In this document: positions 4,400-17,849 of the stretch, one piece after another | How the letters are laid out: each line of letters begins with the position of its first letter | Position numbering within the stretch: the first letter of the stretch is position 1 | Source: Planctomycetota bacterium | GTDB taxonomy: Bacteria > Planctomycetota > Planctomycetia > Pirellulales > UBA1268 | Direction of reading: 5' to 3' | NCBI GenBank assembly: GCA_014238855.1 | Contig: JABAAH010000001.1 | Span: 49,886 to 113,885 of the forward strand | DNA length: 64,000 bases | The notes under the pieces: generated by a model | What the model was told of the DNA's origin: nothing | Seen by the model: only the letters and a program-made list of their open reading frames with translations | Database searches by the model: none | Translations under genes and position numbers: made by a program

Positions 4400-5074
4400 G
4401 TGCATATCATGGACACCCAGAAACTCCTCAAAAATGTTTTGGAAAAAGAGGAACACCACCGTCAGCTTATCGCATATGAAATCCATGATGGAATTGCTCA
4501 GTATCTCTCTGCAGCAATCATGCACCTCGAAGCTTACAGAGCAAATCCTTCGGACAACCCAGAGCACGACCAAAACATGACTGGGGCTCTTCGTCTTTTA
4601 CGAGAGGCCTCTCGGGAGACGCGACATCTCATTTCTGGTCTTCGCCCACCAGCTTTAGATGAACTCGGGATTATTGATTCTCTCGAAATGCTGGTTGCAG
4701 ATACTCGCCTTGAAATCAAAGACGTACACTTCCGGCACAACCTGCAAAGAAAACGATTACCTACGCCGATAGAAGTTTCTCTTTTCCGTATCTCGCAGGA
4801 GTCTCTCAACAATATTCGAAAACATTCCAAAGCAAATCAGGTGCGTGTGGAATTAACTCAAACGGAGGGGGGCACAGTCTCTCTGACCATTCAGGATGAT
4901 GGCTGTGGCTTTGACTCAACGACCCAAAGTGAAAATTGTTTTGGTCTTGAAGGCATTCGCCAAAGATCGCTCCATAATGGCGGCACCGCCAGCATTCAGA
5001 GTCTTCCAGGAAACGGTACCACTGTGCATATCGAGTTCCCAGCTTCCGTCACGCGAAGCAACAGTTCGTTGTAG
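4400..5074 (+). CDS. Cytoplasmic sensor histidine kinase (HisKA_3 + HATPase_c), no sensor domain
   Basis: H-box IAYEIHDGIAQYLSAA (NarX/DegS-type dimerisation domain), N-box ESLNNIRKHS and G-box DDGCGF...GLEGIRQR. No TM segment and no adjacent response regulator. Confidence 0.8.
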   Translation: MHIMDTQKLLKNVLEKEEHHRQLIAYEIHDGIAQYLSAAIMHLEAYRANPSDNPEHDQNMTGALRLLREASRETRHLISGLRPPALDELGIIDSLEMLVADTRLEIKDVHFRHNLQRKRLPTPIEVSLFRISQESLNNIRKHSKANQVRVELTQTEGGTVSLTIQDDGCGFDSTTQSENCFGLEGIRQRSLHNGGTASIQSLPGNGTTVHIEFPASVTRSNSSL

Positions 5075-5170
5075 CGTAGAAGGCGACAACACAAATTGAG
5101 TGAGTAGCGACATTCATATGTTTGAACAAAAGATCTGTTCCTAACCACGCCAATAAATGCAAAATAGAGT

Positions 5171-6856
5171 CTATTCGGTGACTACAGGGCGGCCCACACA
5201 GACCAGACACATGTCGTCACTCCGCACCTGCCCTGCAGCGTGTCGCTCCACGTCAACAAGCAGCCGTTGGCCAACTGCCGCTGGTGAATCCGCTGGCTCA
5301 GACAGAACTTCTTCTAACCGCTTCAGGCCATATGTTTCATTCTTATGGTCCATCGCTTCACTAATACCGTCTGTATAAAGTACAAGCGTACATCCGGCCG
5401 TGACCGTAACCTCGGCGGCCTCGTACACATATGTTGGGTCAACGCCAAGCGGTAGTCCTGCTTCTTCGAACCCTACAGACTCAACGCTTCCGTCAGACTT
5501 TCGTAAATAGGTTGGCAGATGGCCCGCGGACACAACGCTCACGGCATATGATGTCGAGTCGAGCACCACAACAACAAAAGTGGCAAATCGGTCATCCCAC
5601 CCGCTTCTCATAAAACTTGCGTTAAGAAGTGTAACGGCTTTTGCAACATCTGACTCAATCGCGAGCGTATAACGCACATCAGCGGAAAGGGCGGCCATTA
5701 CAAGCGCAGCAGATACACCCTTTCCTGAAACATCCGCCAAAACTACAGCCAAACGGTTTTCACTAAGAGGAATGTATGAAAAATAATCTCCACCAACCTG
5801 ATGGGCAGCCTCATAAAAATCAAATACCTCAAAGCCCTCAATTTCTGGAGGAACTGATGGCAGCAAACCTTGTTGCACACGATTTGCCAATTCTAAATCT
5901 CTCTTGAACTGTTCCTGAGCTACTTTTTCACCATGAGCCGTCGCCTGCTCAACAGCGTTGGCCGCCTGACCTGTAATCCCAGCAAGAACTTCGAGGTCGC
6001 CCTCACTAAAACCATTCTGAATATCACGAGAATCTACCTGGAGTACACCAAGAACCACTCCCTCTGCACTGATAAATGGCACACACATGACCGAACGAAT
6101 ATTGCAGTCAACAACACTCTCATTCAACCGAAACCGACTGTCACTCGTAGCATCCGCCGAAAGTATTGCTGTTTGCGATGATGCAACTTTATTCACCAGA
6201 GAGAGGCTCAGTTGAAGACTACCTTTCTCCTCTGCATTCTTTAACTTTTTTGCACGCAAAATCAGTCTGTTTGTCTTTACGTCATTTAGCAAAACAAACC
6301 CACGCTCGACATTGGGAAAAATATCAAAAATTCCGTCTAAGAGTCGTGGCAAAACGTCTTCAAGCGAAAGCGATGCACCAAGGGCCCGATTCAAACCGTT
6401 TACAGCCCGCAACTTCGCCTCAGCGTTTTGACTCATTCCTTCATCTGCTGATGGACCCGGAATGTCTAACTGAGAGACAATCATCGACTCTTCATCGTGT
6501 GACTGAAAGACTGCTTGTGATTCATCAGTTTCCCCACCAAGCGACACCCACTCAGAGGGAGTTGTGTCACCGACAGTAAAAACTAGCCGATCGTCACAGA
6601 CACCTATCTCATCTGAAGCCTCAAGCCTATGCTGGCCTGTGAGTGTCTCACCATTTACGATGGTACCGTTCCGGCTACCAAGATCTTCCACGCACCAACC
6701 ACCATCTTTCATCTCAATCGCTGCATGCTGGCGGCTAACAGATCCTGAATCAACAACAATATCACAGCCGGGATGGCGACCAATGATCGTTTTCTCTTTG
6801 ACAAGGCGATATCTCTCACCCGCCTTACCGCCAGTCATCAATACGAGGAACGACAC
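5171..6856 (-). CDS. FHA-GAF-PP2C (SpoIIE/RsbU-type) serine phosphatase
   Basis: N-terminal FHA (IIGRHPGCDIVVDSGSVSRQHAAI...GSRNGTIVNG), a central GAF-like region, and C-terminal GGDYF...LADVSGKGVSAAL...LYTDGISEA PP2C motifs. The annotated start is GTG. Confidence 0.85.
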   Translation of the reverse strand: MSFLVLMTGGKAGERYRLVKEKTIIGRHPGCDIVVDSGSVSRQHAAIEMKDGGWCVEDLGSRNGTIVNGETLTGQHRLEASDEIGVCDDRLVFTVGDTTPSEWVSLGGETDESQAVFQSHDEESMIVSQLDIPGPSADEGMSQNAEAKLRAVNGLNRALGASLSLEDVLPRLLDGIFDIFPNVERGFVLLNDVKTNRLILRAKKLKNAEEKGSLQLSLSLVNKVASSQTAILSADATSDSRFRLNESVVDCNIRSVMCVPFISAEGVVLGVLQVDSRDIQNGFSEGDLEVLAGITGQAANAVEQATAHGEKVAQEQFKRDLELANRVQQGLLPSVPPEIEGFEVFDFYEAAHQVGGDYFSYIPLSENRLAVVLADVSGKGVSAALVMAALSADVRYTLAIESDVAKAVTLLNASFMRSGWDDRFATFVVVVLDSTSYAVSVVSAGHLPTYLRKSDGSVESVGFEEAGLPLGVDPTYVYEAAEVTVTAGCTLVLYTDGISEAMDHKNETYGLKRLEEVLSEPADSPAAVGQRLLVDVERHAAGQVRSDDMCLVCVGRPVVTE

Positions 6857-7165
6857 GGTGTCTCCAACTTATTTTTCAATTTCATGGACCATTCAATGAG
6901 CACCTTACTGCCGACCGCCAGCATTTTTCCCTACCAAGTACCCACAGATAACCTTCAGAATAGGCTACCACAACTCCTCTGAATGCTAGTGAAGCATTTT
7001 AGTTTCAGAGAATCCTGAGCAACATCAGATAACCAGAACAACGGCATAACAGGTTGTTTTGCTGAAACTTTTAGGAGCTGCATGATTGGCACTGCACCAT
7101 TGAAAAACCTCTATGACTCCAGCACTTTACAGGATGACGATACCCAAGTGAATTAATCCGGGTAA

Positions 7166-7621
7166 TTAATCTTGCACGTTTTTACATGGCATGACCGTCT
7201 CACAATTCTCTGCTGCTACCGGTCCGTCTTTCAATTCGGCGACCTGACTATCCCACCACTTATATACGCCTGCCAGCAAGTCTTCACGTTCGAACAGAAC
7301 GAACCTTCCTCCCTGTTTTCATTTACACCAGGAAATTCAATTCACCGGCTTGCGATACCAAACCTCTGGAGAGTGTGATGGCCGAATGATCACGGCAAAT
7401 GGTTCATAACCCTCCACATCAACTTCTGGAGGTCTGTCACCGGTCGCTTCGGAAACCTCTTTTTCGACATCACTGATTATTTTCTTCGACAGAACTTCCC
7501 ATTCCTGCTTATTGTTCTATGCAATCTGGTTCTTTGCACCCATTGAAAAACTTACAACAACGGTTACGAGAACCCCAATAATAAAACTTTTACCATTAAT
7601 TGCTTGACTGATTTTGGACAT
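7166..7621 (-). pseudogene. Membrane-anchored hypothetical protein gene inactivated by three in-frame stops
   Basis: One 152-codon frame starts at ATG 7621, preceded by AAGGAGATGGC. It has an N-terminal TM helix (FIIGVLVTVVVSF) and protein-like composition. It is interrupted by TAG (7517-7519), TGA (7337-7339) and TGA (7319-7321). Confidence 0.5.
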
Positions 7622-8238
7622 GCCATCTCCTTTCTCCTCGTTGAATATAAATCGAAAAAGTATAATCGTTCTCGCACAGAACAAAGAAACTTGTCACAAA
7701 TGGGTTCATTCTCAATTTGTGTAGTTCCGAGCAGGGCAGGGCACAAACTATCAGTTGCCTCAGATTTCTTAACTTCGTATAGACTCAAAAGATGCCTGCC
7801 CAACCCCCACAAGCCATGCTCAATCATGACATTGAAAGCATGCTCAACCATGCACCAATCACATGTACAGAACCATCCGGGAATGGCAGTAAAGGCAATT
7901 TTTCCATTATGCTTTTTGCCGCACTGTCAACGTTCTTTATTTTGCTATTCAGCAACTCAGGATAATTTCACCGAAACCGCGATCAGTGACAAGCACACCC
8001 AAGACGCAAAGTTCGCTATTAAACAATGAAAACACTGATTTTATTGGCAGAGTACCTACTGCAAGGATTTCGTGCTGGTCGGATTCGAATTATCATGTTT
8101 CGGCAATCACTATTAAAACGACATGAAAATCGGCTTCAGAAACATCATGAAAGAATGATGCGGGATAACAAACAAAGTGAGACCACAGAACCGCACGAGA
8201 AAGAATGAGGCTATGCACCACAGACCAAAGTTGCGTGG

Positions 8239-8619
8239 CTAACTGGCCGACGGCCCTTGATACGTCGTGTCAGACCAAGCAAGGATTCCATAAAAAATAA
8301 ATGGCAAAAATATTAACCCCAACGTAAACCCTAAACCTTTTCCGAAACTCTTTGACACATCGTGCGTCACCACTATTGCAACAATGATATTCACAAGCGG
8401 TACTAGCAAAAGTAGTAAAAACCACCAAGGACGCCCAGCTATTTTCAGAATCAAATACATATTATAAATCGGAATGAGAGCCCCCCACCCGGGCTGACCA
8501 CTTTTCGTGAAAATCTTCCACCACGATGCAACAATTATGACAACGATAGTAAGATAAATTATTAATAGTACTGGATTCAGATCGCCCTGAGATTGTTGTG
8601 CAAGTACATGTATATTCAT
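8239..8619 (-). CDS. DUF5684-family small membrane protein
   Basis: WKIFTKSGQPGWGALIPIYNMYLILKIAGRPWWFLLLLLVP...SFGKGLGFTLGLIFLPFIFYGILAW matches the pattern I recall for DUF5684. Confidence 0.7.
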   Translation of the reverse strand: MNIHVLAQQSQGDLNPVLLIIYLTIVVIIVASWWKIFTKSGQPGWGALIPIYNMYLILKIAGRPWWFLLLLLVPLVNIIVAIVVTHDVSKSFGKGLGFTLGLIFLPFIFYGILAWSDTTYQGPSAS

Positions 8620-8687
8620 TGATAGACCCCGTACGAAAGAAAAGTGAAACCTGCCAATGATGGCATCGACTTACAAAACTAGAACCT

Positions 8688-8723
8688 TGAATTGCTTTTG
8701 TAACGAGCTCTGAAAAAAAACCA
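8688..8723 (+). repeat. Possible third, very degenerate tRNA-Gln 5'-half remnant (att-like)
   Basis: The blocks GAAT..G..TGTAACG..GCTCTGAA..CCA are collinear with tRNA-Gln positions 5-40. The match needs one 12-nt deletion and two insertions. It sits at the expected outer boundary of the array. Confidence 0.35.
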
Positions 8724-9053
8724 CCAAATCGAATAAAACCTTCAATGCTATCTTACAGACAGTGCCCAATGGCAACGACAATTCGCCAATAGTCTGCACT
8801 AATGAAAACTCGGCGTGAAAGATAACTTATTCAGCATCTATCAATTCATGCTGGTTGCCACCGCCAAACGTCATTGCCGTTTCGTGGTTAATGCTGACAT
8901 TACGACAGCATTCGGACGTGTTCCCGAACGGCACGTCTCAGGGCCTTACGCTCCTATAGAAATATTGCGGGACTTGTCGTTCTGCTCACTATGTGATCTA
9001 GGGCAAGGAAGGGGCAATCGGCTAAACGACAGCCCTTGGAACAAGATTTTATT

Positions 9054-10397
9054 TCAATCAAACCATTCCTCCGTCGATATGTATGCCCAAACATCTAATG
9101 TCATCACGTAGTGACGTCACAACGCACAGCACCACCAAACGGCTAATTGCCTGCGGTGTAATCCCGACAGGTATTTGTCTGAGTAGTGGCTTTCCTTTTT
9201 CTTATCTCCTTGCAGCCGTCACTGCAGCTTTCTTGCAAGTTGTAAAGGTCTCGGATGGTGTACTGCCTGCTTAAGATGTGCGGATCACACAGTTGGTACT
9301 TCCGTTACTGGTCGTGTCATTTCCGTTGTTCCCATGATTGTTCATATCGTACAGGTTGCGCTGCTTGAGCCTATCGTCCTGTAGGATTGCATCGAAACTA
9401 CAGGTATCTCAACATCATCACATGATACTTTTCTTGCCATCTTTTGACTAATGAACAGGCTAGGGTTTCTGTCACTCATTTATGGTCAACTCGAAGACAA
9501 CGTCTTACATAACATCTACTGTCTTTTTAAAGATATCCTTCTCTACTGATTGTTCTGGTTCAAGACTGAAACCGATTCATTACTTTTCTCTTTTGGCTCT
9601 CGAAACACCAGATCGCTTGATATACTTTGTGTATCTCTTTGACCTTATGCCTGCCGAGAAAAGGCGATTCTCCGGCAGGCTTTTTTTTACATTTCACGAA
9701 CGAGTCGTGACGCATCTGTGTCAACTTGATCACTCTGGTCGCTGTAAGTTCTCTTCTAGATGACATCCAAGTACGATTCTACCGAGAGTTCCACTCGTTA
9801 GTTTCCTTCCCTCTACGAGTGTGACTGGCAATTAAAACCCCCGATTGCAGTAATCTCTTTTGATATTCGTCGTTCTATCTTTTTGAGCACCTATGCCGGG
9901 GTAGCAAAGCGATTTGCCTTGACAGCCCATCAGCAGAAGCTCTTTCTAGCATCAACGGCTAGCTCACTGTGACCTTCTCCTTATTCTGCCAGACAATACA
10001 TTTCCAAACTTTTTCTAATTCGTAACTTATCGAGCATGGCCTGCCTCTTGTGATGATTTCAGAGTCCATTCAAAGGCATGCTTATGCGGAACATTTCTCC
10101 TAATCGCATCCGTTGCTTTTCAGCAACCAGCTTTGTGCAGAATGATGGGATACACAGCCCATCTCTTCTAAAAATAGCCAAATTCTTCTGCAACACCTTA
10201 CCCGTTACCTTGCGAGTGATGTATCAGACATCTGCAGCGATACAGTTCACGAATAACGCAAGACCACGTATTCCACTATCCATAACTACTACCCGACTAA
10301 TGTCTGGTAGATATTTCGCCTTCCGCCTGTGAAGTAGGACAACTTTTGAAGATTCTGTCTTGCAACCTATAGCGGGAAATGCGTGAAGACACCGCAT
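9054..10397 (-). pseudogene. Decayed P4-type (DUF4102 arm) tyrosine integrase, older copy
   Basis: From ATG 10397: ...VVMDSGIRGLALFVNCIAADV*YITRKVTGKVLQKNL. By hand alignment, 19 of 40 residues match the integrase remnant at 13945-14528 (EVKDGEIRGLALLVTGTGTKSWYVTRKVQGKLMRKNL). The same frame reaches a stop at 9054 but carries about 20 in-frame stops. Only the first ~130 codons or so are recognisable. Confidence 0.5.
9649..9688 (+). terminator. Rho-independent terminator-like hairpin with T8 tail
   Basis: GCCTGCCGAGAA-AAGGCGA-TTCTCCGGCAGGC followed by TTTTTTTT. GC-rich 8-bp core stem plus extension. No intact + strand CDS lies upstream. Confidence 0.6.
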
Positions 10398-10488
10398 AAA
10401 TGTGTTCTAAAAAAATTAATCACAAAAACCATCGAATGAGATTTGCTTTCAACTTGTCTTGTCGGTTCCCAGCATTACCAGCACCTTA

Positions 10489-10530
10489 CAGGGAATGTTG
10501 CAACAGCACACGACTGGGCTCTCTGAACCA
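10489..10530 (+). repeat. Degenerate copy of tRNA-Gln 5' half (positions ~1-41), att-type remnant
   Basis: Hand alignment to 14653-14693 gives 32 of 41 identities with one 3-nt deletion and three 1-2-nt insertions (GGGAATG, AAC, AGCAC, CTGG, CTCT, GAACCA blocks). Similarity ends at the 3' strand of the anticodon stem. It lies about 90 nt right of the older integrase start. Confidence 0.7.
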
Positions 10531-10874
10531 ACGCACCTTCCTCCCTCGAGCAGATACTCCAACTGAGGCAGTTGTCTTGTTCGGGTTGAATTGACGGACC
10601 AATGAAGAATCGATGCTCATCTATTTTATAAAAACGGAATCAATCAAAAAATATATAGAAAGACTTCCTTATTGAGAATCAGTATCAAATACGGTTGTTG
10701 TGGATGAAATGACACGCACTATAGGAAATAAAAACTATTCGCCGGAAGCAGCCTGCTTGCACCTTCCACCCAGCAAAGTTCGTCGTGGGTGGTGTGACTG
10801 AATTTTGGCGTTGCCTTTTCAGACAAAGTCCTCATACAGTTCTGACTGGGAACAGTTACATTCGGAGAACTACC

Positions 10875-11135
10875 ATGAGTCGAACTTGTATCGTCACGCA
10901 TCACAAAGACGAAACTCAGAGTAGCAAGCACCGACGGTGGACCAACATTGTTTCAATGCTTCCCAAACTGCTCATGTTTATTCCCGTCCTGCTTTGTGTC
11001 AGTCTCTTGTGTTTCGCTATGTCCGCTCATCCAGCGGGTGCCACTTCGAGACCAGTCTCAAAACAAGTCATTGCAGGAATTTCTTTAAAGGAAATAGCAA
11101 GACTTCAAGGGGAACTAGTTTTCACTCACCATTGA
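10875..11135 (+). CDS. Hypothetical small signal-anchored protein
   Basis: 86-aa ORF from an internal ATG with one hydrophobic helix (LLMFIPVLLCVSLLCFAMSA). No recognisable family, and it lies in decayed DNA. Confidence 0.25.
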   Translation: MSRTCIVTHHKDETQSSKHRRWTNIVSMLPKLLMFIPVLLCVSLLCFAMSAHPAGATSRPVSKQVIAGISLKEIARLQGELVFTHH

Positions 11136-11621
11136 TTCTGTCGGTATCACCAGTACGACAATGAGCGGAACCGTCGGCGAGGTAAACCCCGGCCACCTTG
11201 CCCGTGATGGTTGTATCAGCTGCTTTGGTAGCTGAGCAGCCAATGGCACTAATATTGCCTGATACATCGTCTATGCAAAAATGATTCGCAGAAAGATAAT
11301 CGACAGGATTGCAAGAACAGAAAGTCAACAAAGCAAAGCGTTCAGTGCGGATGATTGACTTATAGGAGGCGCGGTCGCAGGATTTGGTACTGGAACGGAT
11401 CTCCACGGCATCGTTTTTTAAAAAACTTGTAAACATTAGCCATAAAAGCCCGGACCCTCGCCCAATGGCGACGGCGCTCGCCATTCAGGACAGACTGATG
11501 TCATCATCGGCATCGAATTCATGGCCGTAGGATTATTAGTATCTACAAAAGCTGTGCTTGCCGACAGATTATCACGGAGGCAGCGGATCAACCACTTTGT
11601 TACGAGCGTGATGTTTGACAT
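11122..11621 (-). pseudogene. DUF1559 / H-X9-DG (prepilin-type processing-associated) family remnant, frameshifted and N-terminally truncated
   Basis: The C-terminus ...GKVAGVYLADGSAHCRTGDTD resembles the ..NVLFADGSV.. H-X9-DG end. CDRASYKSIIRTE resembles the DGTSNTI..E motif, and RCLRDNLSAS resembles QC.NNLKQ. The gene is split over two frames (11436-11621 and 11122-11484). No pilin-like hydrophobic N-terminus remains. Confidence 0.45.
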
Positions 11622-12118
11622 CTTCTTTTCTTCTGATGGTTGTCAACGCAATAAAGATTGGCCTCAACTTGGTCAGACAACTTTTCCTGTTGCGCTTTCT
11701 GGATATTTCGTGTGCTCACTGCTTTTACTGCAGCGAAACCACTGCGGTGCGTCTTTCGGACAATTCTTTTCCGGTGTGAACCAATGGTTTTTTAAGGCCG
11801 TATCGCTGGTAACTTCCGCAACTTATACCCCGTCAAGTTTTGCTCTGCCTTTCGCATACTTGACGGGGTGTTGCTTACACACACAGGAATCAGATGCAAT
11901 GGAAAAAACATTACAAGAACAAATCAAACGCGTTCAGACACTAACAGACAACCAGAAGGAAAGATTTCTCAGGATTTATTTTCATGGATGCCAGCATTTA
12001 TTTGTCGATAGCGCCGTTCGAACTGCTGATCCTGAATAACTGTCTGTCGTGTAAATGCCCATTCGTAGGTTGCTGACCAGCCTGCGGACGGGCTTTCTTA
12101 TTCAACCGAAAGAACCCG

Positions 12119-12298
12119 ATGAAACACGAAACAGTTATGACCTTTGGTAATGACGATCAGTACGAACTAATAGATACCGAATGTGCTGTTTGCCTGTGTG
12201 AATTTTCCTTAGTGCAAACAATTGGAGAGTTGTCGTTGCCATTGTGTGCTACCTGCGAGACGGCTATGGAGTTTTGTAGATACGAATTGGGAGAATAG
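12119..12298 (+). CDS. Small CxxC...CxxC zinc-ribbon-like protein (59 aa)
   Basis: MKHETVMTFGNDDQYELIDTECAVCLCEFSLVQTIGELSLPLCATCETAMEFCRYELGE. It falls just below the ORF-track cutoff and has two CxxC pairs. It has no SD, and its context is decayed. Confidence 0.3.
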   Translation: MKHETVMTFGNDDQYELIDTECAVCLCEFSLVQTIGELSLPLCATCETAMEFCRYELGE

Positions 12299-13087
12299 AG
12301 GAATTGAAATACCGATCGTTTAGGAAGAAGGAGACCGAGTTGTACGAGCCTATGTCGTTCTTGGCTGTTTTTTCGAGGCTGGTCTATTCGCGGTTGTGGC
12401 TAAGGATTATGTCACACCAATTATTCTGTCTTACCTAAAAGCGGATGGTGGCTACGCACTCGGCCTTATTGGCGTTGCCATCGTTCGCGGTATTATCGGC
12501 TTTAATGTCGATTGGCTGGCGTTCTGATAAACGGTTCGACAAGTAAGCAAGTACGACCTGGAATCGTCACAATATGAGTAGTGCCACAACAACAACCAAA
12601 AAACGTACAAAGTGCGAGAAGTTGAAGCCACGGAAAGATTTTTTAAAACAGTAACGAAAAGACATTTCCTATCGGGCTTCATTAGATAGGCCATGGTTTT
12701 ATCCCCCATACGAGTTTCCAAGCTATTGCACAGAAAGCCAGGGCGGGGAGGGGTCTTGGCTCCATCAGTGCCAAGCCGGAATAGACACCCCTATAGAAAT
12801 ATTGAAAAACCATGATGCTCATTGTGCGATTAAAGCTAAGAAACACTTTTGCACTGAATCACCCTGTCGGCTCAATATGTTTTCAAGATCATCAGCTCGG
12901 AAGCAAATACCATGTCTGCTGATGCAGACATGTTTGGGGGCCTTTGTTTCTGCTTTTTCAAGTGCGTCCGGCTTGATTCTTTCCGCCTAAGAAAGCTACC
13001 GCTTCGATGTCGACTACGATTCTCATTTGGTATCTCCGTTTGCGGTGAGCTCCAAACAGGGGCGCGCATTTGGACGCATGTAGATGA

Positions 13088-13564
13088 TTACTTTTTGCGT
13101 TCTTGTTTTAATCGTCTGCGGATGTAGTGGCCGCAAGTAGATGGCTTTATTTTGATGCCATATTCTTGAAGCATGTGCTGGCTCAAGTCCTTATATCCCG
13201 GATAGCCAAGCGTCTGGTATTCGGTCCATAGCAGTTCACGCTTCTCAATAGCTTTGCGAGTACGCTTATCTGTTGAGGCTCGCAAATGTCGATTGTTTTT
13301 CCTGTCGGTCTGAATGCAACCAGAACCAAACGCTTTTGAAAGTGCTGTATGAATTGCGGCGGCCTGTGTCTCGGAGAGCTTGCCACCAATTGCCTCTGTC
13401 AACTCTGCTGTGAATGGCTCAATCAGTTCATTAAGTGCATTCACGAGTATGACCTTCCCATTTTTTTTCGTGGTGTAGTCAATGCCAGAGTAGTGACTTG
13501 CCGCAAGTTGTTCTGGTGTCAGATCTTCGCAAGCATCCCAGAGTTCATCAAACGTCGTAAACAT
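13088..13564 (-). CDS. Hypothetical protein with basic, HTH-like C-terminus (island cargo)
   Basis: 158 aa from ATG 13564 (MFTTFDELWDAC...). The C-terminal GYPGYKDLSQHMLQEYGIKIKPSTCGHYIRRRLKQERKK looks like a resolvase/Hin-type HTH plus a basic tail. The start overlaps the upstream ORF by 17 nt. Confidence 0.55.
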   Translation of the reverse strand: MFTTFDELWDACEDLTPEQLAASHYSGIDYTTKKNGKVILVNALNELIEPFTAELTEAIGGKLSETQAAAIHTALSKAFGSGCIQTDRKNNRHLRASTDKRTRKAIEKRELLWTEYQTLGYPGYKDLSQHMLQEYGIKIKPSTCGHYIRRRLKQERKK

Positions 13565-13940
13565 TGCTGCCCCCCTTAACATCCCGCCGCTTCCACGCAA
13601 GATTCGCTTTTGCAATATCGTGGCTCACCTCACCACCAATATGCGAACAACGACCAGCAAACAGGGCGGCGGCTTCGTCGACACGGCTTGCCTGCTCTGG
13701 GTCTAGTCCGTGCAGTGACTTACGAAATACATCCCATGCGGCCAAAACTCTCTGCGTGCCGTCAGCAACGACCATGATTGCCTCATTATTATTGAGAACG
13801 AGATGTTCACCAAAGTCATCAATGACAAAACCATTCTTACCAGCCCTATGTCTTTCTATGACACCGCTGATGGCCGTACCATTCATAGCAATATGCTTGG
13901 CATGTTTTTCACGTTGCTGTGCTTCTTGACTGTCTGTCAT
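13548..13940 (-). CDS. Hypothetical protein (island cargo), first gene of an overlapping pair
   Basis: 130 aa from ATG 13940 (MTDSQEAQQREKHAKHIAMNG...). Intact frame and protein-like composition, with no family recognised. It begins immediately after the integrase remnant ends. Confidence 0.5.
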   Translation of the reverse strand: MTDSQEAQQREKHAKHIAMNGTAISGVIERHRAGKNGFVIDDFGEHLVLNNNEAIMVVADGTQRVLAAWDVFRKSLHGLDPEQASRVDEAAALFAGRCSHIGGEVSHDIAKANLAWKRRDVKGGSNVYDV

Positions 13941-13944
13941 GTAT

Positions 13945-14528
13945 TCACCTCTCCATGGAATCAATCACTTTTGTAATTGCCTGCCGTATTGGTGCCAACA
14001 ACGGTCTGGCGTATCGTCCTTTGATACCTTGATATCTGCAGCCTAATGCTACAACGATAGTAAATTCATTGGCTCCTGTATCTGCCATAAAGCTAGCCAG
14101 AGTCGTACGCCCCGAGAAAGCTTCCAGATCAGCATTGGTTTGGTTGTCGGCTTTGGCTTGCCCCACCAGACGGTACGCTCTTCATAGGCTAGGAACTCGT
14201 TCACCGCCGGTATCTTTTGGCGTTCTGGAGCTAAGTCGTCTGAGTTACTCCCTTGCAACCATGCCAGCGTGTTGTTGCGGGCCGCCCCAGGAGAGGCGAT
14301 GGGCCATTCGCCTAGATTCTTCCGCATCAACTTTCCCTGTACTTTCCGAGTGACGTACCAGGACTTTGTGCCTGTTCCAGTGACGAGTAAAGCCAAGCCG
14401 CGTATTTCACCATCCTTTACTTCAAGACACCTGCTATCTAGCGGACATTTCAGCTTTTCGATAATATTGCGGGAAAGCTTCCTTGCAGGTGCTGGTCGCT
14501 TTTTCGGTATTCTATATTTAATAGACAC
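13945..14528 (-). pseudogene. Truncated, frameshifted P4-type tyrosine integrase (arm + core-binding domains only)
   Basis: 14049-14528 encodes a DUF4102-like arm (EIRGLALLVTGTGTKSWYVTRKVQGK...LGEWP). After a frameshift, 13945-14166 encodes a SAM-like core-binding segment (...RYARPLLAPIRQAITKVID). No catalytic R..HxxR..Y domain follows. Confidence 0.75.
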
Positions 14529-14652
14529 AGGCGATTATGAGTGATGATATCCTGATGGCTCTGTATGTCGTATATCAGGCATAAATCCATCTACAAGTAA
14601 GAACAACAAAACAGTATGTAATGTAGTTATTAAAGGCGTAAAAAGCAACTTT

Positions 14653-14723
14653 TGGGGAATGGTGTAACGGTAGCACGGCTGGCTCTGAACCAGTTAGTCC
14701 AGGTTCAAATCCTGGTTCCCCAG
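14653..14723 (+). tRNA. tRNA-Gln (anticodon CTG)
   Basis: Manual cloverleaf fold: acceptor TGGGGAA/TTCCCCA, D arm GTGT/GCAC, anticodon arm GCTGG-CTCTGAA-CCAGT and T arm CCAGG-TTCAAAT-CCTGG. CCA is not encoded. Confidence 0.95.
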
Positions 14724-14822
14724 TTTGCCTGCACACGGCAAAAATCTGAACGCGGAGATGCTCATTATTTCATGTCATTTCTAATTGCGATTAAGTAGTT
14801 TTTATGCATCGTAACACTACGA

Positions 14823-16028
14823 TTGAAGGACGCCTACCAAATGACTAATGCAACACCTTCAGAAAACAGCAAATCAAACCAAGTCAACACCACGCAACCG
14901 TCTGTGGCAGCATCTTCTGTGACCGACGCCGTTGGCCGTTCGGTTGATGGCCACCGCGTGCTTTTGGTCGACGATCAACCGATGATTGGTGAGGCCGTTC
15001 GACGTCTCCTTGCTGACCAGGCGGACATCACCTTTGCATTTTGCAAAGATGCGGCCAAGGCTCTGTCGACGGCAGAAGAATTTCAACCAACCGTCATTTT
15101 ACAAGACCTCGTTATGCCAGACATTGACGGACTCGACCTTGTGAGTCAGTTCCGTTCTCATCCTGGAACCGAAAAAATTCCCGTCATTATGCTATCCGCA
15201 AACGAGGAAGCTGCTACGAAAGCCCAGTTACTCGAAGCAGGAGCCAATGACTATCTGATAAAACTTCCACATCAAATTGAGCTCATTGCCCGTATCAGAG
15301 TTCATTCCGAGGCGTATAAAAGACTCCTGGAACGTGATGCTGCTTTTGGTGCACTGGAACGTTCACTTGCAGACCTGACGCGAGAAAGAGAGAAGTCAGA
15401 ACGACTTCTTCGCAATATCCTTCCAGATACGATTGCTGAACGACTCAAAAATAATGTCTCGACCATTGCCGAAACATACTCTTCCGTGAGTGTCTTGTTT
15501 GCAGATCTCTGCGGCTTTACAACGTTTTCCGAACGTGTTGACGCAAGTCAACTTGTCGACTTGCTCGATGATATCTTCTCTGCGTTTGACCACCTTGCAA
15601 ATGCTTATGGAGTTGAAAAAATTAAGACTATTGGTGATGCCTACATGGCAGTGGCCGGCCTTCCTGAACCTCGTGATGACCACGCGGAGGCGGTCGCCGG
15701 CATGGCGCTGGGGATGCTCGAGGCGTTTCGTGGTGTCATGCGTAACAGAGGGCTCTCTATGGAAGTGCGCATCGGCATCCACTCCGGCCCTGTCGTTGCA
15801 GGAGTCATCGGCAAGCATAAATTTTCTTATGACTTATGGGGTGACACTGTAAACACTGCAAGCCGCATGGAATCCCATGGCGAACCATCTCGAGTGCACG
15901 TATCCAAAGGAACATACGCACTCCTGCAAGATCGTTACCGCTTTACGGATCGTGGTGAAATGAACGTAAAAGGCAAAGGGATGCAGCAAACATATTTTCT
16001 GCTTGGACGACACGAGGAGTCCGTGTAA
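14823..16028 (+). CDS. Response-regulator receiver fused to class III adenylate/guanylate cyclase
   Basis: Receiver domain (VLLVDDQPMIGE...LQDLVMPDIDGL...MLSA) followed by a cyclase domain (VSVLFADLCGFT...IKTIGDAYMAVAG...RIGIHSGPVVAGVIG...YDLWGDTVNTASRME). The likely true start is ATG 14841. Confidence 0.85.
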   Translation: MKDAYQMTNATPSENSKSNQVNTTQPSVAASSVTDAVGRSVDGHRVLLVDDQPMIGEAVRRLLADQADITFAFCKDAAKALSTAEEFQPTVILQDLVMPDIDGLDLVSQFRSHPGTEKIPVIMLSANEEAATKAQLLEAGANDYLIKLPHQIELIARIRVHSEAYKRLLERDAAFGALERSLADLTREREKSERLLRNILPDTIAERLKNNVSTIAETYSSVSVLFADLCGFTTFSERVDASQLVDLLDDIFSAFDHLANAYGVEKIKTIGDAYMAVAGLPEPRDDHAEAVAGMALGMLEAFRGVMRNRGLSMEVRIGIHSGPVVAGVIGKHKFSYDLWGDTVNTASRMESHGEPSRVHVSKGTYALLQDRYRFTDRGEMNVKGKGMQQTYFLLGRHEESV

Positions 16029-16115
16029 GCCGGCTTTGAGTTGCTTATTCAGTAAAGAACAAAATGTATAACGACAGGCACATTACACTATGGCAAAAAC
16101 ACTGGAGCCGTCCGA

Positions 16116-16337
16116 ATGGTGAGATCACAGACGCCTTCCATCGGTGAGGCCTTTGTTTGGGTCGGACGCATTACGGCGATAGGCTTGACTATGGTACTAC
16201 CCGGGATCGTTGGTAGTTGGCTTGATTATCGACTCAACACCGCTGTCTGTGAGCCAGTTGGCTTTATTCTTGGATTTCTCGCAGGTCTTGCATCCCTCAT
16301 CCGCCTCGCTGCCACACGTCAGCAGAAGAACCCGTGA
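16116..16337 (+). CDS. AtpZ-like small membrane protein (ATP synthase gene 1 family)
   Basis: 73 aa with two TM helices. It is the first gene of the atp operon, and the ...GIVGSWLDYRLNT..PVGFILGFLAGLA.. pattern is typical of AtpZ. Confidence 0.7.
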   Translation: MVRSQTPSIGEAFVWVGRITAIGLTMVLPGIVGSWLDYRLNTAVCEPVGFILGFLAGLASLIRLAATRQQKNP

Positions 16338-16350
16338 GAAAAGCCTCTCT

Positions 16351-16845
16351 ATGCCAACGTCCTGCACATCCCGGCGAAAGTCCATAATTATTGGCCTGAT
16401 CGTCCTCACTCTCGGTCAGATCACCACTGCCGGTGCGATGCTGTGGCGGAATGCACCTAGTTTAAGCCTTGAATCTCGAGTTGTGACTGTTGGAATTGTG
16501 AGTGTGATTGCGCTCAGTGGTGGATTTTTTTCCTGGTATATCACGTGCTGGTCGAAAACGATGGCCTCAACTCAACCGGCTTTGGGCGTCGCCGCTGCCC
16601 TCGCTGCAAATTTTACCCGCCTGATAATGCCTCTATTTGCGATTGTTTTCCTCCAGATGTTCACTGGAGAAGGGCTCTTGGGTATACCTCTGAAAAATTT
16701 TATTGAAGAAACTCTTGTTGCCTCCTACCTAGTTTTGCTTTTGCTTGATATCCTTCTCCACATGGCTGGCTATGGTAAGGATATTCACGATCCTCACAGC
16801 CTAGACAACCAAGCCGCACAGACGCAAAACACCATCTCATCCTAA
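16351..16845 (+). CDS. atpI: AtpI-like ATP synthase accessory membrane protein
   Basis: 164 aa from the internal ATG at 16351 of the 16210 ORF. It has four predicted hydrophobic helices and lies directly upstream of atpB. Confidence 0.55.
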   Translation: MPTSCTSRRKSIIIGLIVLTLGQITTAGAMLWRNAPSLSLESRVVTVGIVSVIALSGGFFSWYITCWSKTMASTQPALGVAAALAANFTRLIMPLFAIVFLQMFTGEGLLGIPLKNFIEETLVASYLVLLLLDILLHMAGYGKDIHDPHSLDNQAAQTQNTISS

Positions 16846-16862
16846 AAAATTAGTGCTATCCG

Positions 16863-17849
16863 ATGTCATCGAATCCCATATACCATCTCAAAGATGCCTA
16901 CTTTTTCGAAGTACCCAAGGGTCTTTGGAGATACGACTGGAAGTCACTGAGTGACGTTCCGTCATTTTTAACGGATGGGCATCCAGACGTCACTGACGTC
17001 AATCAATTCAATCGAGCGCTTGATGGCAAGGTGCTGATTCCACAACCATTTGCTGATCTTCACAGCCTTTATACTCCGAAATCAGGATTTGCAATCTCGA
17101 AATACATGATCCTAGAACTCGTTGTAGCCGCAATCATGGTGCTGCTGTTCACACGGGTTGCGAAGCAGTTGTCGACAGGAGATCACCCAAAAGGACGATT
17201 TGCCAATCTCTTTGAAGCCTTTCTAGTGTTTATACGCGATCAGATAGCAAGGCCAGCGATTGATGACCCACCTGGACATGGCCATGATGATCAGGCCATT
17301 CCTGTACACCGAGGGGATAGTTTTGTCCCTATGCTGTGGACTCTCTTCTTTTTCGTTCTTGGGTGCAATCTCCTCGGCATGGTGCCTTGGGCAGGCTCAC
17401 CAACGGCATCATTTTCAGTCACAATTGCCCTCGCTGCAGCAACGTTTGTGACCGGAATGTTGTCCGGTATGAAGCAATTTGGTGTTTTCGGCTTTTTCTT
17501 AAACCAAGTCCCACCAATTGACATGCCCACATACCTTCTGCCGCTGAAAATCATTATTTCATGTGGGCTTTTCTTGATTGAAATGCTTGGCTTATGCATC
17601 AAACACCTGATACTTGCCGTTCGGTTACTCGCAAATATGGTGGCAGGACATCTCGTTCTCCTCGGAATTATGGGGCTTATCACAGCGGCTGCCTCTGCTT
17701 CGACTGGCACTTGGGTGACCGTCACCGTCATTAGTGTTGTCAGTGCCACGCTTTTTAGTGTGCTGGAGTTGTTCGTGGCATTCCTACAGGCCTATATTTT
17801 CACGTTTTTATCTGCTCTTTTCATCGGTGCAGCGGTTCATCACCACTAA
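16863..17849 (+). CDS. atpB: F0F1 ATP synthase subunit a
   Basis: AVRLLANMVAGH (essential Arg motif), a multi-TM architecture and its operon position. Confidence 0.95.
   Translation: MSSNPIYHLKDAYFFEVPKGLWRYDWKSLSDVPSFLTDGHPDVTDVNQFNRALDGKVLIPQPFADLHSLYTPKSGFAISKYMILELVVAAIMVLLFTRVAKQLSTGDHPKGRFANLFEAFLVFIRDQIARPAIDDPPGHGHDDQAIPVHRGDSFVPMLWTLFFFVLGCNLLGMVPWAGSPTASFSVTIALAAATFVTGMLSGMKQFGVFGFFLNQVPPIDMPTYLLPLKIIISCGLFLIEMLGLCIKHLILAVRLLANMVAGHLVLLGIMGLITAAASASTGTWVTVTVISVVSATLFSVLELFVAFLQAYIFTFLSALFIGAAVHHH

Follow-up and report, generated by a model that had tools for sequence, protein, structure and literature searches.

Background

What occupies the DNA on the 5' side of a tRNA-Gln(CTG) gene in an uncultured planctomycete, and how did pieces of that same tRNA gene come to lie within it? 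The gene is found in a stretch of 64,000 nucleotides of a Planctomycetota bacterium (GenBank assembly GCA_014238855.1, contig JABAAH010000001.1, positions 49,886 to 113,885). This whole stretch is referred to as the window, and coordinates are positions in it unless a relative is named; related loci carry L numbers. The mobile elements of this phylum have been little studied. An earlier note on the window described decayed integrase islands lying in tandem upstream of the tRNA gene, accompanied by copies of the 5' half of the tRNA. Here we report a computational analysis of the locus and of its counterparts in related genomes. With a probability of roughly 0.7, the 7.6 kb upstream of the tRNA gene (7073-14651) hold the remains of two or more related P4-type integrative elements, which would have used tRNA-Gln(CTG) as a mirrored attachment site.

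Results

The tRNA gene and copies of its 5' half

An intact tRNA-Gln(CTG) gene lies on the + strand at 14652-14724 according to ARAGORN and at 14653-14723 according to Rfam (RF00005, 66.5 bits), in agreement with the earlier note. Both programs give this one tRNA-Gln only, and Rfam finds no second tRNA in the locus at E<=1. When the tRNA is aligned locally against 8000-14600, the sequence at 10491-10530, upstream of it on the same strand, matches tRNA positions 4-41 with 32 identities. The Smith-Waterman score of this fragment is 35; 200 dinucleotide shuffles averaged 21.0 +/- 2.0 and never exceeded 29, and the runner-up tRNA match anywhere in the window scores 24. The 5'-half copy that the earlier note had placed at 10489-10530 is thereby confirmed with slightly narrower limits. 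Faint similarity extends about 10 nucleotides (nt) further upstream, and the fragment is kept in the sister species L091 and in at least eight of ten contigs of the source species. In all contigs of the source species, position 27 of the tRNA-Gln itself is G (window position 14678; a G-U pair with U43), whereas it is A (an A-U pair) in the tRNA-Gln of all relatives and in the 10491-10530 fragment.

The outermost remnant of the tRNA 5' half, at 7073-7101 (+ strand; about tRNA positions 15-43), is decayed and was recognized by orthology to a fragment in the relative L113. In the window and in L091, the sequence on both sides of the remnant aligns with L113, and the position-restricted probability of the match is P=0.024. 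The L113 fragment corresponds to tRNA positions 4-43, with 33 of 40 bases identical and no gap, and scores 41 against 17.7 +/- 2.2 in shuffles (maximum 27). It has the orientation of the tRNA and is located exactly where homology of the flank, which carries an FHA-GAF-SpoIIE gene, comes to a stop. L113 therefore displays the whole signature in an island of 1.9 kb: tRNA, integrase relic, 5'-half fragment and FHA flank.

All three fragments (10491-10530, 7073-7101 and that of L113) end at tRNA positions 41-43, on the 3' strand of the anticodon stem. In the 60 nt downstream of each, similarity to the tRNA 3' half is no better than in shuffles (P=0.83, 0.21 and 0.35), which bears out the earlier observation that the similarity stops at the anticodon stem. 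A weaker third copy had been proposed at 8688-8723 and was rejected. It amounts to the shared 8-mer GCTCTGAA, shuffles reach a higher maximum on average with each of three scoring schemes, and several other spots in the region score higher against the tRNA.

The empty site and the boundary of the island complex

With the receiver-cyclase protein encoded next to the tRNA as query, species-representative genomes yielded distant planctomycete relatives in which the cyclase gene comes after tRNA-Gln(CTG). No island is present in three of these (L002, L003 and L005), which are at about 50% nucleotide divergence in the cyclase gene: the FHA-GAF-SpoIIE gene lies on the opposite strand directly upstream of tRNA-Gln, and the cyclase gene follows. 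Comparison of the flanks has thus yielded an empty site in these three genomes and, in L092, a fresh related element at the same site, which is described below. Because the FHA gene abuts the tRNA gene where no island is present, about 7.8 kb of the window must be inserted DNA, and it lies on the 5' side of the tRNA, as had been claimed. In the window, the native flank (5171-7072) consists of the FHA-GAF-SpoIIE gene (5171-6856, - strand) and its upstream region. In six closer relatives, homology to this flank stops at window positions 7070-7091. On the evidence of these alignments, the true outer boundary of the island complex is the remnant at 7073-7101, beside the FHA-GAF-SpoIIE gene.

The boundary differs from that drawn earlier, where a DUF5684 gene next to 8688-8723 (8239-8619, - strand; Pfam PF18936, E=9e-28) was taken for the first ordinary gene on the left. 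Since the insertion extends leftward to the FHA flank, the DUF5684 gene lies inside the island and not beside it. One genome alone can mislead as to where an island ends and which gene is its native neighbour, and this is a lesson for annotation. The tRNA-proximal unit (10531-14651) is about 4.1 kb long and the outer unit (7102-10490) about 3.4 kb. Some 1.4 kb between the FHA-GAF-SpoIIE and DUF5684 genes (6857-8238) contains no convincing open reading frame (ORF). The sequence right of 7101, toward 8238, is confined to the lineage of the window and L091; 740-880 nt of unrelated sequence stand there in the L112 clade.

Two integrase relics

The integrase relic next to the tRNA, INT2 (13945-14528, - strand), is a dead P4-type tyrosine integrase, recognized by a Pfam match and by comparison with P0006, its homologue in L092. 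It starts 124 nt upstream of tRNA-Gln and is transcribed away from it. A 159-amino-acid ORF (14528-14049) matches Arm-DNA-bind_3 (PF13356, formerly DUF4102) with E=3e-6 and 27.7 bits, a narrow margin over the cut-off of 27; the truncated DUF4102-type integrase of the earlier note has thus been recovered. INT2 is made up of an arm-binding N-terminus (14163-14528), a frameshift near 14163 and a C-terminal tail of 73 amino acids (13945-14163). When it is aligned with P0006, '...ADNQTNADL' is joined almost directly to 'RTTLASFMADT...', so that about 110 residues of the catalytic core have been deleted. The deletion removes from the window copy the catalytic domain PF00589 (R..HxxR..H..Y), which is present in P0006 with the motifs ARR, HDLR, GH and RY.

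Between INT2 and its counterpart in L091, which has the same deletion, pN/pS is 1.37, as in neutral evolution. The tRNA-adjacent integrase is a pseudogene in every lineage examined, and its deletions, frameshifts and stops differ among lineages. The N-terminal ORF is open in several lineages, with a dN/dS of 0.25 against L093. Domestication of the arm domain was considered and ruled out, because it evolves neutrally between the window and L091 and is broken by frameshifts or stops in several lineages.

A second integrase N-terminus, INT1 (about 10176-10397, - strand), contains stops and is paralogous to INT2, as judged from tblastn, blastn and frame translations. When the 64 kb were searched with the INT2 N-terminus by tblastn, 10286-10176 matched at 51% over 37 amino acids (E=5e-7), and no other match had an E value better than about 4. 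In the nucleotide comparison, blastn aligned 10182-10322 with 14316-14456 at 67% identity (E=1e-12). The stop-riddled paralogue described previously is therefore genuine. INT1 is decayed further than INT2, and it is truncated. Its orientation matches that of INT2 relative to the tRNA, and the spacing is similar, 94 nt separating the INT1 start from the 10491-10530 fragment. In both units, a relic lies between copies of tRNA sequence, and each unit has its own integrase beside a 5'-half copy, as had been stated; both relics are pseudogenes without a catalytic domain, and every integrase in the window is dead.

The spacer between the INT2 start and the tRNA (14529-14651) is the putative P arm of the element. 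Identity between the window and the 97% identical strain L092 stops at 14641, 11 nt upstream of the tRNA. The last ~11 nt of the spacer, AAGCAACTTTT, are common to independent elements and resemble the native flank, GCTGAAACTTTT. Among independent copies, similarity reaches about 10-12 nt upstream of the mature tRNA 5' end.

The locus in relatives and the L092 element

A profile of the integrase N-terminus was run against metagenomes and returned nine loci, the closer relatives L111-L119. In all nine, and in L091-L093 (12/12), the integrase sits beside the 5' end of tRNA-Gln(CTG) and diverges from the tRNA; the question of which side the integrase homologues occupy is settled for these loci in favour of the 5' side. 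An exact look-up of the INT2 relic protein, made for tandem context, returned ten places with the same context in all. In relatives, the locus takes a short form that comprises the tRNA, an INT2-type relic, an orphan gene (ORF138), the remains of ORF175, a segment like 9134-9796 and the flank. Integrase relics of four lineages are about equidistant from one another, whatever the distance between their hosts, and this equidistance of sequence suggests recurrent arrivals of elements.

A recent arrival is seen in L092, the flank of which is 97% identical to that of the window and which the host tree places together with L091, at a cyclase distance of 0.01. At the same tRNA site, L092 holds a different, larger P4-like element (L092 9221-17777) that reaches the end of the contig. 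The catalytic domain of its integrase is intact and the N-terminus is frameshifted. The element also encodes a 188-amino-acid ORF, an excisionase-like helix-turn-helix (HTH) protein (phrog_66, E=4e-7), an SNase-domain protein, an 850-amino-acid P4-family primase (TIGR01613, E=6e-75) and others. Such a fresh element at the same site indicates that elements with this family of integrase arrived here recently. A search of JGI metagenomes with the L092 primase found no relatives, and a search of IMG/VR with the L092 integrase gave a single match at 25% identity; no excised form turned up. In the window, neither a primase nor an AlpA/excisionase-like HTH was found with Pfam, PHROG or NCBIfam.

Other contents of the island

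ORF138 (13548-13964, - strand) follows the integrase directly and would encode 130 amino acids from the ATG at 13940. It is intact, at 77-100% protein identity, in every related lineage with a contig that reaches it, while its surroundings decay. It has no Pfam, PHROG or NCBIfam match, its homologues were found in this clade only, and its AlphaFold model is unusable (pLDDT 43). ORF175 (13088-13615, - strand) is intact in the window and L091 and decayed in other lineages.

Segment 'd' (9134-9796, + strand) is non-coding and is retained in L091 and in all farther relatives with contigs that reach it (L111-L114, L116, L118 and L119). Identity to the distant relatives is about 70%, with near-invariant patches, and a perfect intrinsic terminator is located at 9649-9688 on the + strand (GCCTGCCGAGAAAAGGCGATTCTCCGGCAGGC, followed by a T run). 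No Rfam match was obtained, and covariation according to RNAalifold is nearly nil (-0.27). Segment 'd' may be an element-derived small RNA or regulatory unit. If the DUF5684 gene and some short ORFs are set aside, ORF138 and segment 'd' are the only parts of the island that look maintained.

The distal part of the tRNA-proximal unit (10531-13087), delimited by its ORFs and by comparison with relatives, contains ORF116 (10785-11135, + strand), ORF120 (11122-11484, - strand), ORF172 (11521-12039, + strand) and the small, CxxC-containing ORF59 (12119-12298, + strand). The stretch from 10531 to about 12853 is missing from all relatives outside the lineage of the window and L091. A degenerate, inverted copy of ORF59 lies beside the DUF5684 gene at 8724-8892 (- strand; blastn against 12119-12290, 69% over 172 nt, E=1.7e-19). 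Relatives outside the lineage of the window and L091 have neither copy of ORF59, and none of them has the DUF5684 gene at this locus.

Divergence between the window (5000-17000) and L091 is strongly mosaic. In four blocks (7800-8600, 10800-11200, 11800-12200 and 13400-14000) the two sequences hardly differ, synonymous sites included, and the blocks between them differ by 7-10%. This pattern points to tracts of recent recombination or to nucleotide-level constraint. An indel within the species lies to the left of INT1, where ~308 nt in the window (9819-10128) correspond to ~100 nt in the 99.5% identical L084.

Discussion

A proposed mirrored attachment site

From the anatomy of the locus, we infer where strand exchange would have fallen, what would have supplied the promoter and in which order the elements would have arrived. 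The attachment site of the element (attP) would carry tRNA sequence from about -12, upstream of the gene, to +43, in the 3' strand of the anticodon stem. The strands would be exchanged within the anticodon loop, and the arms of its stem would act as a pair of inverted core-binding sites. The block of identity between attP and the chromosomal site (attB), from about -12 to +43, would then be the mirror image of that in the usual anticodon-loop class. Integration would put the element upstream of the tRNA gene, its integrase adjoining the rebuilt tRNA and transcribed away from it. The element would supply a new 5' half, to about position 43, and necessarily a new promoter, which would lie in 14529-14651. 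The old 5' half would be displaced to the far end of the island, where 7073-7101 would be the displaced original, and the 5' part of the present tRNA would have come from the last element to integrate. The present layout would accordingly run from this outermost remnant, through the inner remnant (10491-10530) with its relic (10176-10397), to the youngest DNA at the tRNA, namely INT2, ORF138 and ORF175. The end of the fragments at the end of the anticodon stem, seen also in the independent L113 fragment, is better read as the signature of a recombinase core than as a random duplication breakpoint. Lysogeny dependent on a complete tRNA brought in by the element was rejected, as the locus holds one tRNA-Gln only, reconstituted at the junction.

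Several observations weigh against this account. Since no intact element with both of its ends was recovered, attP has been deduced and not seen, and the L092 contig stops within its element. A promoter scan upstream of the tRNA gave no sigma-70 consensus on the + strand. Farther integrase homologues (35-42% identity) have no detectable adjacent tRNA; P0008, P0009, P0016, P0020 and P0025 carry no information on this point, as either no tRNA is adjacent or the contig breaks off upstream of the integrase, at a distance of about 140 nt. The remaining difficulties concern the inner unit. INT1 is interior to what is one island in relatives, which have retained nothing of the segment from about 9870 to 12853, where INT1 and the inner fragment lie, and also lack DUF5684, ORF59 and ORF116. 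On the cyclase-gene tree, the short form is found in three successive outgroup lineages (the L112/L114/L118 clade, L116, and L113/L093). This favours a gain in the lineage of the window and L091, and simple accretion at the tRNA would need repeated or shared deletions of 9870-12853.

Origin of the two units

On balance, we lean slightly toward sequential integration at the tRNA as the way in which the window acquired its two units. The units share an integrase N-terminus, an ORF59-like sequence (inverted) and a tRNA 5' half, and INT1 shows the greater decay to be expected of a tandem array's older, inner unit. Where one element is already resident, another can enter at either of its att sites (PMC7192596).

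The strongest competitor grants that the outer island arose by true integration with a 5' half and holds that the block with INT1 and 10491-10530 was imported later into the middle of the old island. The vehicle might have been, for example, a piece of an element with an unrecombined attP (integrase, P arm, tRNA 5' half and P' arm), that entered through homologous or illegitimate recombination, or else another strain could have donated the allele. INT1 with its fragment is just what an attP that had not recombined would look like, and one gain of the parts missing from the three outgroup lineages is more parsimonious than three losses. We nevertheless consider such an import unlikely. Greater decay and truncation of INT1 are what an older tandem unit would show, and INT1 shares with INT2 and the tRNA both its orientation and its approximate spacing. 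Moreover, the points at which homology ends vary by lineage (about 9695, about 9800 or >=9870 on the left; 12854, about 13145, 13462 or 13578 on the right), as would be expected of independent deletions. The locus is also a recombination mosaic, so that the host tree, from which the parsimony argument derives, may be the wrong guide to its history.

A further alternative, without any integrase action, is that integrase, spacer and tRNA positions 1-43 were duplicated together long ago as one segment and then diverged. This would account for the common orientation, the similar spacing and the two further sequences common to the units. It is very improbable in view of their divergence. DNA identity between the units is about 52% overall, with a single patch of 142 nt at 67%, and this divergence is far above the differences among lineages. 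In addition, the ORF59-like copy is inverted, and a duplication would have had to break at the very end of the anticodon stem, where the independent L113 fragment ends too. Least credible of all is that the tRNA-like pieces are chance matches, given that those at 10491-10530 and in L113 exceed every shuffle, or decayed full-length tRNA-Gln genes, tandem or element-borne, for which a few T-loop-like letters can be found by eye after the L113 and 7073-7101 remnants, but which the shuffle-level matching of 3' halves downstream and the lack of a second Rfam tRNA contradict.

A wider and more tentative reading joins the relics with the L092 element, and we regard it as possible though rather doubtful. 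The relics and that element may belong to a planctomycete-specific clade of P4-like integrases with an obligate mirrored anticodon-loop site (attP with tRNA-Gln sequence from about -12 to +43 and with a promoter). Its members would have recolonised the same tRNA repeatedly, and ORF138 and segment 'd' would be element-derived functions that the host has kept throughout the existence of the clade. Should an element of the L092 type be active, its integrase and attP would make it possible to test directly how a symmetric anticodon-loop site can be used either way.

Comparison with known systems

The earlier note regarded the 5'-side layout as the possible mark of an uncharacterised subclass of integrase and att site. 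This does not hold, as the Islander database (Hudson, Lau & Williams 2015) lists such islands. In that catalogue, 3760 islands have a 3' tDNA fragment and 159 a 5' fragment (159/3919), 125 tandem arrays are recorded, and the filters explicitly permit a 5' fragment upstream of the gene (PMC4383910, Table 1 for the counts). The 5'-side arrangement thus makes up about 4% of the catalogue, a minority class but one already on record. Like the 5'-fragment islands and tandem arrays of Islander, the present locus has an intact tRNA and, upstream of it, a cognate 5' end fragment with the orientation of the tRNA; an integrase relic lies between them, and relatives show the empty site. The lengths of both units fall in the Islander range of 2-200 kb. 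Crossovers centred on the anticodon and tandem arrays with an integrase and a fragment in each unit would also be common to both. Unlike Islander islands, the locus has integrases that are all pseudogenes, for which the Islander integrase filter might reject it; its host is an uncultured planctomycete, and the oldest fragment in the window is detectable through orthology only.

Elements and satellites of the P4 family resemble the relics in the N-terminal arm-binding domain and in having the integrase beside att and transcribed away from it, and the L092 relative adds the excisionase-like HTH and the P4-family primase. The window family differs from them in carrying the 5' part of the tRNA and sitting upstream of the gene, and the window copies have neither the primase nor the catalytic domain. 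In the islands of dusA-specific integrases (Farrugia et al. 2015, PMC4482086), the element's own copy likewise replaces the 5' end of the target gene and transcription signals must come from the element. The target there is protein-coding and the integrase family is another one, so the likeness is one of working and not of membership. With the anticodon-loop sublocation class, as cited in PMC4383910, the locus shares an identity block bounded by the anticodon stem and a symmetric site; the block runs toward the 5' end of the gene here and toward the 3' end in that class as it is cited there. The locus offers a clear and traceable case of a minority mode of tRNA integration, in which the element gives the gene its 5' half together with its transcription signals. 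It is a decayed example of a known, uncommon integration mode.

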